Below are positions 33,386-39,342 of a stretch of DNA of 41,528 nucleotides, one piece after another (position 1 is the first letter of the stretch; each line of letters starts with the position of its first letter). The stretch spans positions 99,848-141,375 of the forward strand of contig MHCP01000028.1 of NCBI GenBank assembly GCA_001816655.1, written 5' to 3'. This DNA comes from Candidatus Woykebacteria bacterium RBG_13_40_15. GTDB taxonomy: Bacteria > Patescibacteriota > Microgenomatia > Woykebacterales > RBG-16-39-9b. A model generated the notes under the pieces. The model saw nothing but the letters and a program-made list of their open reading frames with translations. It did not search any database and was not told where the DNA came from. The position numbers were made by a program, and so were the translations under genes.

Positions 33386-33658
33386 TTAAATCCCCAAGAA
33401 GACTTTTACTAAATTTTCGCTTACTTCTAATACCCCTCTTTTAAAGGAGTACTCGATTTTTTTCTTTTTATCTATAGTATGGATCGTCAGTTTATTAGAA
33501 ATCAGTGTTATGAAATTTGTATGTTCTGGTAATATGTCAAACTTCCCCATCTTATTCTCCGAAGAAACAGCCGCAGCCTCCCCGCTGAAACCAGATTGAG
33601 CTATTGTAGGGGACCAAAAAACGGAGACATTGAGTTGTTCATTTCTTTCTTTTGTCAT
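33386..33658 (-). CDS. atpC: F-type ATPase epsilon subunit, beta-sandwich only (90 aa)
   Basis: [16 protein letters not shown]...[13 protein letters not shown] matches the epsilon N-domain. The C-terminal helical hairpin is absent. Confidence 0.75.
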
Positions 33659-35025
33659 ACTTTCAATTCAGATAAATCACCGATGTTCAAAAATTTTTCT
33701 TCTGTTACATTATCAAGCCTCCCGGCTAATAGATCACGCACATCACTGATGGTTTTTTTTATCGGCACATATTTGCCTACCAATCCCGACTGTTCCGCTG
33801 TTACAAAAAGATTTTGGGACATGTAATTTAGAAGTTTTTTCGCCCGGTAATACATGATTCGATCCTCCAAAGAAAGCTCAGATTCCCCAACTATTGAAAC
33901 AATCCTTTGCAAATAGGTATATCTTTTCAGGAGTTTATCTGATTCGATAACTGCCTCATAATGTTCAAACCCTAAAATATTAGGATCAATTAAAGATGAG
34001 GAGGAGGCTAAAATATCAACCGCTGGATGCCGTCCTTCTTGATATACAGTACGCGACAAAGCAACAACTGAATCAAAATATGGCACTATTGCTTGAACTC
34101 CAGCATCAGTAATATCATCTGCCGGCATATAAATCGCCTGTATACTTGTAATGGATCCTTCTTTTACCGATACCAATCTCTCTTGGAAAGCGCCAACTTC
34201 ACCCGACAACGTAGCCTGGTAGCCATCTTCGGAAGGAATTGTATTTAGCAAGGTAGAAAGCTCGTTGCCAGCTTGTACGAACCTATAAATATTGTCGATG
34301 AAGAAAAGTACATCTTTTTTTAATACATCTCGAAAGTATTCTGCTATAGCAACTGCTGTAAATCCTACACGGAATCGAACAGCTGCCGCTTCATTCATCT
34401 GACCAAAGACGAGGGCAACATTGGGTAAGACTTTTGCTGCCTTCAGAGTTTCATATAACTCGTGCCCCTCTCGAATACGTTCTCCAATACCAGCAAAAAC
34501 TGAAAGTCCTTTATGAAATATAGCTATGTTATGCATTAACTCTGAAAGCAGAACAGTTTTTCCTACACCACTACCACCGAACAGACCAATTTTTCCTCCC
34601 TTTTTAACTGGCGTAAAGAAATCGACAACTTTTATCCCTGTTTCCATTATATTGGCCGTACTAGATAGTTCACTGTAGGCTGGTGACGAATGATAAATGG
34701 AAGATTTTTTAATTTCAGATAAGCCTCCCAGATTATCAATAGGGTCACCAAATAAATTGACGACTCGCCCCAAAAGTTGCTCCCCAATAGGCACCTCCAA
34801 GCTTTTTCCAACCCGCTCAACCTTAGCTCCTCTGTAAAGCTTCGCGGAATCCGAAAGTGAAATACAAAGAACAGTATTGTACACAGTCGAGCTGTAAACC
34901 TCCAATTTGACTTCTTTATCCTGCGAAAGGGTAAGAAGTTCATGTCTAGTAGGCTTTTCAACTTTAAATTCAACTTCGACAATATCTCCTCTGACCGCTA
35001 CGATGTAACCAGCACTTTCACTCAT
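33655..35025 (-). CDS. atpD: F1 ATPase beta subunit
   Basis: GGSGVGKTV Walker [40 protein letters not shown] and an ESELSLED (DELSEED-like) segment. GGGGAGG RBS before the ATG at 35025. Confidence 0.9.
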
Positions 35026-35899
35026 TTTTGCCTCCCCATAGACCAAAACCGGCGAATACTTCTAGTTGTTTTCTGTTCAAAATTTGCTTATGTAAGGTAT
35101 TGAAATCTCTATTCAGTTTTTTTAGCATCTCGTTCGCATTTTCAGTAGCCTGATCCATAGCTACTGTTCTGGAGGCAAATTTCGCTAGTTCATGCTCGTA
35201 AACTTTTTGGATGAAAAGAGCGGAGATAATTTCGGTTTCAAAAAATCCCATGATTTTTTCCGGTGAAGGCTCAAATAAGTAATTTTTGCTTTCAGTAACT
35301 TTTTTCTCTTGGAAAATATTACCAGTAATAGAAGCGCGCGTGGAATTTTGTTCCAAAACTGAAATCATTTGTCCGTAATATATTATGATTTTTTCGTACT
35401 TACTAATAAAATTGATTATTTTTGATAGCTGATTCTTAGTTGGTTTGTCGTCTTCCAAGCTAAAATAATTCGTAGAAGGTATTTCTATCTTCTCGTTTTT
35501 CATTAAATACCTACCAAAAATGCCAGCTACAACAGCCTCATTCTTACGATCCGCCTTTAAATCGGTAACAAATTGGTACCAGATATTTAAAATCAAATTG
35601 CCATAGAGGTGCTCATTAGCTGTCAGGCAAACAAGGAGGGTCTTTCCATTTCTTTTTATGAGGCTTGGTTCTTCTGTTTGTTTTTTATCTGCAAAAGGCC
35701 CTTTTTGCCAACTTGCGATATAGGCTGCTTTCGCATGGTTGTATACTTCAGCTACACCATTCAAAAAATAGCGGGTAGCCTCAACCCCACTTTTCAGCTG
35801 ATTCATTCGCAATAAAGCTATTTCCTGGTAGATTCCAGTGATATCCTTTATTGCTGAAACCACTTCTGAATTTTCTTTAAACTCTTTTCGGCTAAGCAT
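35018..35899 (-). CDS. atpG: F1 ATPase gamma subunit
   Basis: Position between alpha and beta, 293 aa, and N- and C-terminal helices ([15 protein letters not shown]...[20 protein letters not shown]). Confidence 0.8.
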
Positions 35900-37862: not shown

Positions 37863-38546
37863 TTATTTGCCTTCGAAAAACTTTTCCTTTTTTGCCTTTT
37901 CAAGGGCTTCCATTACCAATTCCTCATGGGTTGACATGTCAACAGAGCGGCCGATTGTATTTTTGGCAACTTCACTAATTATTTGATAGATTTGTGTGTC
38001 CAGCTGCTTAATTTTTTGCTGCTTATGAGTTTCGACTTCTTTATCAACCCTAGCTATTTCCTGACTCAGTTTCTCCTCAACCATCCGTGGAATTTGCTCT
38101 AGCTCCTTTTGAAGGCTTGGTAAAAGTTGTGAGACCTTCTCCTTCGTCTCTGAACTAACTTCTCTATTTAAGACGGAAAACATAGTTTGGTAGGTTGAAA
38201 TGATATCCTTAGATTGGTTTTGAAATACTTTTTTACTTTCCGCTATTGTTTGTTCTACTCCCGTTCTCATTCTATTCTCGATATCTAAACGGAATTCTTC
38301 GGAAAGCCTCAAGTTACGTTTGGATTCTTCAATAGAGTTGTTAACAAGTTCCGATGCCATAGAGATTGTTCTTGCTAGCACTTCATTTGCTTTTTTTCCT
38401 ACAGTATGTCTTGCTTGTTCCCCCTCCTTCAAAAATGGCTGAAATTCGCTTAAGACCTGGTTCGTTTTATAAACCATATAAGCAACAGCCAAAACCATTA
38501 CTATATTTAGAACAAGGCTTATGATTAAAATTATTTCTGCACTCAT
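37863..38546 (-). CDS. atpF: F-type ATPase b-like stator subunit (227 aa: one N-terminal TM helix plus a long coiled coil)
   Basis: The single TM helix IILIISLVLNIVMVLAVAYMVY is followed by about 190 aa of charged heptad-like sequence, in the atpF position. Confidence 0.65.
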   Translation of the reverse strand: MSAEIILIISLVLNIVMVLAVAYMVYKTNQVLSEFQPFLKEGEQARHTVGKKANEVLARTISMASELVNNSIEESKRNLRLSEEFRLDIENRMRTGVEQTIAESKKVFQNQSKDIISTYQTMFSVLNREVSSETKEKVSQLLPSLQKELEQIPRMVEEKLSQEIARVDKEVETHKQQKIKQLDTQIYQIISEVAKNTIGRSVDMSTHEELVMEALEKAKKEKFFEGK

Positions 38547-38559
38547 ATTTTCCTCCTAT

Positions 38560-39342
38560 CTATAAATAAAAGATGATAAATAAAGCTAGGCTTACCCCAG
38601 CTGCTGTCAGAACAAAGATACCAAGTAGATTTAGAATTAGCGCGAGCTGAATACTAGTTTTCGCCATGGGGTTTCTGCCAATAGATTCGACCCCAGAACG
38701 CAAAGATCTTACGAAAGAGAAAAAGCCCATGAAAAATGTTCCTCCACCTACCAAAAGAGCAAATAAGTAACGAAGGAAGACAGGAAAATTCTCTGGTTTC
38801 TCCAAACTGGTAGTCAAAAGGGTTAAGAGTCTGTTGAAAGTGGGTCTTCCCTCAAGTTGGCGGTATTGGATATTTACAAATACTCTTATTTGACCACTAC
38901 TTCCGTTTAAATTCTCTAAGGCTTTGCCAAGAACAAAACCAGAATCTATAGCCTTTTGTCCCACTCCTGCGGATCCTGAAGAAGTGACAAAATCTCCTCG
39001 TTTTATCGACCCCTTTTTATCACTTACATTGACAAACACCTCCCCATAGGAAACAACCGGCCTTGTATTAGGCCCAATCTTGTTAACGGAAACGCTTGGA
39101 TTTTCTACTACCACTCCAAAAAGATTCTTATCGTATTCTGAAGAGGAGCGGACTGTTCCCTCGTCTGTTTTTGAAATAATATCTCCTGGCCTAGCAAGGT
39201 TGTCGTCGACTGGAATATTAGCAGCAATCCCTGAGCTTGAATTCAGCTCAGCAGATAAAATCTTCGAGGGGTAAACGACTGCAATGATAGTCGCAGCGAA
39301 AAATAGGATTATGGCAGTTTTCGTATCCATGGCAGGCCCCAT
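38560..39342 (-). CDS. Fusion protein: signal peptide, beta-rich ectodomain of about 170 aa, and a C-terminal F-type c-subunit-like helical hairpin lacking the carboxylate
   Basis: The C-terminus [68 protein letters not shown] has a Gly-rich helix 1 and a VESxxR(N/Q)PxAK loop like c subunits. There is no Asp or Glu in helix 2. It lies 13 nt upstream of the b-like gene. Confidence 0.6.

Follow-up and report, generated by a model that had tools for sequence, protein, structure and literature searches.

We describe a cluster of seven F-type ATPase genes carried on the minus strand of a 41,528-nt stretch of DNA (hereafter the window; contig MHCP01000028.1, positions 99,848-141,375) from Candidatus Woykebacteria bacterium RBG_13_40_15. 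As judged from its sequence, the cluster is derived from an F-type ATP synthase, yet its only c-like protein (a fusion encoded by the first gene, here called g1) lacks the essential carboxylate of a c subunit, and an a subunit was not found in the window or in the flanks of related loci. We lean, with moderate confidence, towards reading it as an F-type ATPase derivative specific to Patescibacteria, that is, an ATP-driven rotary machine that would translocate no ions and would bear an external crown on its ring. The evidence that carries this reading comes from the g1 protein itself, from the preserved F1 subunits and from the conservation of the whole arrangement in relatives.

The g1 protein and its missing carboxylate

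The AlphaFold2 (AF2) model of g1 (predicted local distance difference test score, pLDDT, 84.8) consists of a hydrophobic helix (residues 7-23), a beta domain (residues 39-161, pLDDT >90), a short helix and a helical hairpin (residues 183-259; helices 183-223 and 225-259), the last being preceded by a PENxP..RY motif. When compared by Foldseek with F-type c subunits of the PDB, the hairpin reached template modelling (TM) scores of 0.72-0.87 and root-mean-square deviations (rmsd) of 1.3-1.7 Å at identities of no more than 28%. A profile of 15 diverse g1 hairpins run against 177,635 PDB sequences retrieved only F-type c subunits, over both helices (best E 1.2e-5), the c1 subunit of A. woodii (4bem_J) being among the weak matches, while hhalign of the hairpin against four canonical c subunits gave a probability of 89.6% (E 1.9e-6). 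By both sequence and model comparison, the g1 hairpin is a true homologue of the F-type c subunit.

The position of the canonical carboxylate (18 residues after the loop proline) is taken by L, V, T, F or I in the g1 family. An Asp or Glu in the helix-2 core was found in none of the best 120 homologues and in none of the 44 locus copies, which, together with the wider census that follows, confirmed the proposal of the initial annotation that the c-like hairpin carries no helix-2 carboxylate. From the 264 family members examined (50%-identity representatives included), 260 have no core carboxylate at all; in the other four a core Asp or Glu stands in helix 1 (two members) or helix 2 (two members), at non-homologous edge positions. 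In E. coli double mutants the essential carboxylate can be moved to helix 1 of the c subunit; since the helix-1 core is acidic in only those two g1 members, at non-homologous positions, the carboxylate has not been shifted there. The cytoplasmic loop reads R-N-P where normal c subunits have R-Q-P, and it was RNP, always with Asn, in 264 of 264 members of a set chosen by requiring R-[N/Q]-P. Taken at the level of the alignments, the loss of the carboxylate is a family-wide trait and no single mutation, and a hairpin so composed cannot, on its residues, bind ions.

The N-terminal segment of g1 is hydrophobic and carries an Ala-x-Ala-like signal-peptidase site (LSA-E here and FA-Q in relatives, the dash marking the putative cut), and positive residues flank the loop of the hairpin. 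Read from the sequence, these two features together place the beta domain outside the cell, the N-terminal segment being a predicted signal peptide or anchor. The N-terminus of a normal c subunit likewise lies on the outer side. In searches of the predicted viral structures of BFVD the beta domain matched phage proteins annotated as 'preneck appendage protein barrel' (E down to 1e-10; rmsd ~2.0-2.4 Å over ~126-135 residues, 20-29% identity), a barrel that corresponds to the C-terminal auto-chaperone of phi29 gp12. Foldseek against the PDB returned capsid decoration or cement proteins as well as phi29 gp12 and gp8.5 (matches include 3gqh, 3suc, 8hdt_G and 6qyy). The same domain recurs near the C-terminus of large proteins at other loci (L025:7057-8403(-), L043:3-2519 and L044:3-5243) and is present in up to three copies in giant proteins of 1543 and 4272 amino acids (aa; P0154 and P0174). 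A grouping of g1 with the giant proteins encoded upstream of it into one family proved to be an artefact of single-linkage chaining, as BLAST and a domain hidden Markov model (HMM) detected the g1 domain only in the L025, L043 and L044 proteins of that group and not in the upstream giants.

F1 subunits, putative stalk and membrane subunits not found nearby

The beta subunit aligns end to end with 2qe7_D (E 2e-123), with the catalytic motifs (including DNIYRF) in register and an ESELSLED version of the DELSEED motif in place, and it scores above the cutoff of the curated atpD model TIGR01039 (510 versus 463 bits). The alpha subunit has a P-loop (GDKKTGKS) and an Arg finger (within RPAIN), its best PDB match has an E-value of 5e-100, and it stays below the curated atpA cutoffs (449 versus 554 bits). 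This alignment of motifs to F1 sequences of the PDB showed the Walker A and catalytic motifs of both subunits to be intact, as first annotated, and the F1 moiety looks (from its sequence) catalytically intact. For both subunits the scores against true F1 exceed those against mycoplasma F1-like, N-type and type III secretion families, and among the PDB matches listed for beta, that to the beta subunit of the M. mobile G1-ATPase (9io5_A) is the weakest. The delta subunit is above the cutoff of the Pfam OSCP model and under the curated cutoff of TIGR01145 (1.7e-7). The C-terminal helices of epsilon normally brake ATP hydrolysis; here epsilon covers only positions 14-77 of the 130-position TIGR01216 model, so that these inhibitory helices are absent. 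The reduction of epsilon to its beta-sandwich, which had been read from the 90 residues encoded in the window, was borne out by its single Pfam match (PF02823) and by a short epsilon (82-116 aa) in all 33 loci in which it was measured.

The b-like protein, encoded between the c-like gene and delta, has one N-terminal transmembrane helix, a coiled coil of variable length and, according to the alignment, a conserved C-terminal part of ~70 aa containing the block KIYQIL..VAK.T.GK.IDLSTHE.LV..ALEKAKKE. Its profile gave weak matches to subunit b (9itj_U, 2.3e-4) amid coiled-coil noise, and the NCBIfam b models matched at E-values of 0.6-4.6. The b-like protein is indeed long in the window (227 aa), and its relatives span 136-344 aa. 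A conserved Asn (LNIV or LNAL) stands in its transmembrane helix in the Microgenomatia-like branch only, and no conserved Arg was seen in the transmembrane helix of either the b-like protein or the giant protein encoded upstream of g1.

The initial annotation had found no atpB with the operon, and this holds for the window and for ~10 kb around g1 in 43 loci. Within the window, six-frame searches with a small c HMM and with the E. coli a subunit (phmmer), together with Pfam on the large open reading frames (ORFs), revealed neither an a subunit nor a free c subunit, the sole c-like match being the C-terminus of g1 itself (E 0.008, small c HMM); in 43 other genomes neither was detected within ~10 kb on either side of g1. 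The absence of atpB and atpE thus covers the window and the ~10 kb flanking g1 in 43 genomes. No multi-helix membrane protein is encoded in the ATPase cluster. An ORF of ~250 aa (F13), which in seven loci immediately precedes g1 on its strand, was considered as an a subunit on account of its size and rejected, its product being soluble, rich in Cys, of zinc-ribbon type and devoid of transmembrane helices; by eye it is transposase-like.

Relatives, gene layout and the divergent neighbour

A g1 profile search covering 1.84 billion representatives recovered 6301 clusters at E <= 1e-10. At E <= 1e-30 the family comprises 615 clusters (50% identity), nearly all of 235-305 aa and full-length, with many invariant positions in both hairpin and domain; where public names exist, they read 'hypothetical protein'. 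Locus comparisons used one genome per species (43 loci) and drew on metagenome-assembled genomes (MAGs) labelled Woykebacteria, Curtissbacteria, Parcubacteria, Nealsonbacteria, Paceibacterota, WWE3 and Saccharimonadia, in addition to several evidently mislabelled bins. Patescibacteria-type synteny was also seen under the labels Nanoarchaeia archaeon, Humimicrobiaceae, Gammaproteobacteria and Omnitrophota (L003, L012, L029, L031, L032, L034, L038), and these labels are unreliable. The full order g1-b-delta-alpha-gamma-beta-epsilon is present in 30 of the 44 loci with g1, most of the others ending at a contig edge, and wherever a locus extends far enough, the fusion gene is seen to be conserved along with the F1 genes; the co-conservation that the initial annotation had put up for testing is upheld.

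Several variants depart from this order. A response regulator and a histidine kinase are inserted between alpha and gamma in L006 (9576-11358), L012, L014 and L015, and such genes adjoin epsilon in many other loci (e.g., directly after it in L007:6285-, L008:6802- and L024); a two-component pair inside or beside the cluster hints at regulation of the cluster. L041 has no separate delta. In L039 (9944-14602) the order is g1-alpha-gamma-beta-epsilon, with neither b-like nor delta and with a gap of 12 nt between g1 and alpha. Given the 44.8% GC of this locus and the two giant genes upstream, the label of its 1.4 Mb contig, Vitreimonas, looks wrong. The housekeeping gene for leucyl-tRNA synthetase (LeuRS) travels with the cluster: it follows epsilon in Woykebacteria-like loci and lies between the giant gene and g1 in Curtissbacteria-like ones (among L027, L028, L031, L033 and L036). 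Downstream neighbours vary between lineages.

The seven close-set minus-strand genes of the initial annotation are confirmed in their coordinates by the ORF listing, Pfam and NCBIfam (Table 1). Spacers amount to 13 nt (g1/b-like), 2 nt (b-like/delta) and 13 nt (delta/alpha), and overlaps to 8 nt (alpha/gamma) and 4 nt (beta/epsilon). The gamma/beta overlap is 29 nt if beta is read from the first TTG and 8 nt from the ATG at 35025, which we prefer since it matches the 455-aa orthologues; with this start, spacing nowhere exceeds 13 nt. All seven ORFs are as first described, and their grouping as a seven-gene operon calls for a small correction: as LeuRS lies on the same strand, 17 nt after epsilon, the transcription unit may exceed seven genes. 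The ORF-free region of about 450 nt that had been noted upstream, followed by a divergent gene, is present, its exact length being 446 nt. Rfam and tRNA scans gave no RNA gene in or beside the ATPase cluster.

Table 1. Coordinates (window positions) of the ATPase cluster, its surroundings and other features of the window
Feature	Position	Strand	Length and matches
g1 (c-like fusion, putative rotor-ring protein)	38560-39342	-	260 aa; no significant Pfam match
b-like protein (putative peripheral stalk)	37863-38546	-	227 aa; no significant Pfam match
delta (OSCP)	37375-37860	-	161 aa; PF00213 1.3e-7, 32.3 vs 22.3 bits cutoff
alpha	35892-37361	-	489 aa; ATP-synt_ab (PF00006) 7e-66
gamma	35018-35899	-	293 aa; PF00231 5e-28
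beta	33655-35046	-	463 aa, probable start ATG 35025; ATP-synt_ab 1e-62; TIGR01039 510 bits
epsilon	33386-33658	-	90 aa; PF02823 1e-8, beta-sandwich domain only
LeuRS	30768-33368	-	17 nt 3' of epsilon
Divergent intergenic region between g1 and giant gene	39343-39788		446 nt, no ORF
Giant divergent membrane protein gene	39789-41528, past window end	+	
L1 ORF	4566-5411	+	~80 extra residues
L7/L12 ORF	6327-7031	+	234 aa; ~100 extra N-terminal residues ahead of the dimerisation domain
PEGA-domain protein	20063-21205		
Sortase	21218-21904		
Serpin, full-length	22290-23558	+	PF00079 E 2.6e-126
Type IV pilin	23636-24070		

The divergent gene encodes a giant protein with a cytoplasmic head, one transmembrane helix and a huge repetitive extracellular part (complete copies have 2370-2817 aa; examples are L001:2732-9841(-), L005:2-5320(-) and L017:1-8451(-)). 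The ~100 residues of the head are strongly conserved (LISxDEVIxRAKxxGVDFGKGDPxNRLRYYTKIGLLPHAKRKSF). A single copy of the motif NRLRYYTKIGLLP is present in each of 27 loci and in the window, invariably upstream of g1 and on the strand opposite to it, and the locus sequences contain no other copy. The pairing of giant gene and g1 persists in the Curtissbacteria-like group despite the LeuRS gene inserted between them. The AF2 fold of the head is nearest to MerR-family winged helices (HiNmlR, GlnR and SoxR; TM-score at most 0.72, weak E-values of 0.07-0.5), Pfam MerR matches to it are weak, and a search with the N-terminal 108 aa returned 19 short fragments only. It is typical of MerR regulators that their genes and the genes they control are divergently transcribed. 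One reading of the predicted fold is that the giant is a membrane-tethered MerR-like regulator that may couple surface events to ATPase expression. In the 446-nt region the best sigma-70-like site (39706-39734, 10/12) faces the giant gene; neither the number of promoter-like sites nor that of inverted repeats there rises above chance or shuffled sequences, and no operator was found in it.

Elsewhere the window carries genes that are ordinary for Patescibacteria, among others those for NusG, L11, L1, L10, L7/L12, a GH94 phosphorylase, glycosyltransferases and MreB, together with a sortase, a serpin, a type IV pilin, NDK, ArgRS, ComEC, ComEA and LeuRS, as well as six tRNAs. The serpin gene, full-length in a genome as small as this, has the PEGA-domain protein, sortase and type IV pilin genes as neighbours. 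Either the true starts of L7/L12 and L1 are internal or their extra residues are lineage-specific extensions.

Readings of the cluster and what they imply

We reason that, in a rotary machine of the kind we favour, g1 would oligomerise into a ring gripped by gamma and epsilon, and that alpha3beta3 would hydrolyse ATP and turn the gamma-epsilon pair and the g1 ring, with delta and a b-like dimer as the stator. Since the ring would have no carboxylate and no a subunit is encoded with the operon, no ion would be moved, and the machine would serve neither to synthesise ATP nor to pump ions. What it delivers would instead be mechanical: outside the membrane, phage-tail-like beta domains would form a crown which, on being turned or re-positioned, would act on something at the cell surface, and the giant surface protein could be the thing acted on, an anchor for the stator or the membrane-tethered MerR-like regulator mentioned above. 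Delta and the b-like protein are retained in most loci, which suggests that torque against a stator still matters. The initial annotation had proposed that the complex as encoded cannot move ions by the known mechanism and may be a rotary or mechanical device; the carboxylate census and the absence of the a subunit near the operon both support it.

Several points weigh against this rotary reading. That g1 forms a ring, that this ring rotates and that it bears a crown outside are all things we infer. With no a subunit, there is no visible anchor to hold the transmembrane helix of the b-like protein still, which makes the use of torque hard to account for. The b-like protein is itself only weakly recognisable as subunit b and its length ranges widely (136-344 aa across loci), while L039, which has neither b nor delta, fits a stator-dependent motor poorly. 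Moreover, our searches for the a and c subunits used an E. coli a query and a c HMM of four sequences, which a very divergent a subunit could escape; a canonical atpB-atpE pair may lie elsewhere in the genome, or the ring may mix g1 with a normal c subunit.

This last point leads to an ordinary split synthase, with atpB and atpE elsewhere and g1 as an accessory protein or a minor member of a hybrid ring, a solution we regard as improbable. It draws on the restriction of the a and c absence to the window and the ~10 kb flanks, on the complete F-type ATPase modules reported in most candidate phyla radiation (CPR) classes (PMC9166423) and on hybrid rings in which carboxylate-free hairpins are known (A. 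woodii c1 is, as stated, among the weak matches of g1). Against it, g1 occupies the exact atpE slot beside b, no a or c was detected within 10 kb in 43 genomes, and the F1-facing RNP loop, kept in 264 of 264 members, would be hard to explain if another protein formed the ring. For atp operons, a split that kept b with F1 and yet moved a and c away would be unusual. Sets without a and c have, besides, been reported as common in Patescibacteria (PMC11738941). An ion translocation by unfamiliar chemistry, in which Asn, Thr and Gln of the hairpin (13, 21 and 7 residues after the loop proline) would bind the ion and a non-homologous stator (for instance a transmembrane helix, that of the giant or of the b-like protein) would provide the access channels, seems very doubtful to us. 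All of the 119 closest homologues have the Asn at +13 and nearly all the Thr at +21, the peripheral stalk is kept and a membrane protein is a conserved neighbour, all of which would suit it; in Curtissbacteria-like and other branches, however, the Asn at +13 is replaced by Ser or Gly, and the transmembrane helices of the b-like and giant proteins have no conserved Arg. The E. coli cD61N mutant is inactive, and we know of no rotary ATPase that transports ions without a ring carboxylate.

The cluster could also specify a membrane-anchored F1-type ATPase without sustained rotation, which would supply the energy to export, fold or assemble the giant surface proteins, with the g1 ring as a docking platform and the external auto-chaperone-like domains helping fibre proteins to trimerise (the FliI-FliJ-FliH set of type III secretion being the analogue). 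We consider this unlikely, albeit worth keeping in mind: the fold of the g1 domain is that of the phi29 gp12 auto-chaperone barrel and is met again towards the C-terminal ends of giant proteins of the CPR, genes for giant surface proteins are conserved neighbours, and L039 dispenses with the stator stalk. Conversely, alpha, beta, gamma and epsilon are nearer to true F1 than to FliI/SctN or to mycoplasma F1-like sets, the upstream giants have no g1 domain, and most loci keep delta and the b-like stalk, of which the known role is to resist torque. Finally, a decaying and functionless relic of an ATP synthase operon, which the genome reduction typical of the lineage and the loss of the a subunit and the ion site might suggest, can be given almost no credence in the face of seven intact reading frames, 615 full-length clusters at 50% identity, invariant positions and a gene order kept across distant lineages.

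In relation to known systems, the cluster shares with canonical F1Fo (atpBEFHAGDC) the gene order from c onward, recognisable gamma, delta and epsilon subunits and a c hairpin with an F1-facing loop, and the similarity of its alpha and beta to solved F1 structures (5e-100 and 2e-123) is about that of ordinary bacterial enzymes. It differs in having no a subunit with the operon, no Asp or Glu in the ring and no C-terminal helices in epsilon, in a ring protein with a putative signal peptide and a predicted exported domain of ~125 aa, and in the long and variable b-like protein. The N-type ATPases (atpDCQRBEFAG) are likewise a second divergent lineage of F-type operons; these, however, keep an a subunit and a carboxylate-bearing c, neither of which was found in or near the cluster, and have another gene order. 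Given that the scores against the N-type models are far below the cutoffs (beta, TIGR03305, 451 versus 752 bits; alpha, TIGR03324, 374 versus 750 bits), the cluster is, by sequence comparison, not an N-ATPase.

In its proposed function the cluster is most like the mycoplasma F1-like X0 ATPases, yet it is no member of that group. The M. mobile machine works with giant surface proteins. The X0 ATPases (Types 2 and 3, including the gliding G1-ATPase of M. mobile, 9io5) are likewise seven-gene clusters of a reduced, host-dependent bacterium that combine F1-like alpha, beta, gamma and epsilon with a non-Fo membrane part and are thought to hydrolyse ATP for a use other than ion transport (PMC3369863). 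They have no homologues of c, b and delta, encode three proteins unrelated to Fo, among them ones of unclear origin with 3 and 12 transmembrane helices, and coexist with a genuine Type 1 operon (PMC3369863), whereas c-like, b-like and delta are retained here. Scores against the mycoplasma families (MSC_0619/MSC_0618 and MMOB1660/MMOB1670) are below the cutoffs for both alpha (262 versus 520 and 361 versus 600 bits) and beta (383 versus 570 and 371 versus 850 bits). Hairpins without an ion-binding residue are also known from A. woodii c1, V-type proteolipids and the 'non-catalytic' c of ProAD (PMC11738941); these differ in that hairpins with a carboxylate and an a or I subunit are present as well in their rings or genomes, and none is fused to an exported domain. 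The phi29 gp12 barrel and the beta-tulip capsid decoration proteins have the same fold as the g1 domain and are soluble phage modules, which here would be fused to a subunit of an ATPase ring.

Parts of this pattern have surfaced before. A c subunit without Asp or Glu was noted in 20 F/N-type enzymes, and incomplete subunit sets in Patescibacteria were ascribed to genome incompleteness (PMC11738941); F1-only Saccharimonadia MAGs were pointed out (PMC9166423); and it was called surprising that Patescibacteria, having no respiratory chain, should possess an ATP synthase (PMC11665869). In the literature covered (most subscription journals lay outside it), we came across no earlier account, for Patescibacteria, of a c-hairpin fusion or of a ring that lacks the carboxylate.

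If a widespread form of the operon does have a rotor unable to bind ions and no channel subunit, metabolic reconstructions in which these organisms make ATP by it or pump protons would be mistaken, and the puzzle of the Patescibacteria ATP synthase would become a testable question about the task of a motor. Reduced symbionts would then have repurposed F1 in two independent cases, the mycoplasma F1-like ATPases and this cluster, of which the latter would be the first to keep the c-ring itself, decorated on the outside. More tentatively, as a possibility for which we see less than even chances, many Patescibacteria may own an ATP-powered rotary surface motor that works with giant surface proteins and has no bioenergetic role. 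Such a motor could serve, for instance, in attachment to host cells, in movement or in attack, and its owners would have no F-type route by which to make or use an ion gradient.

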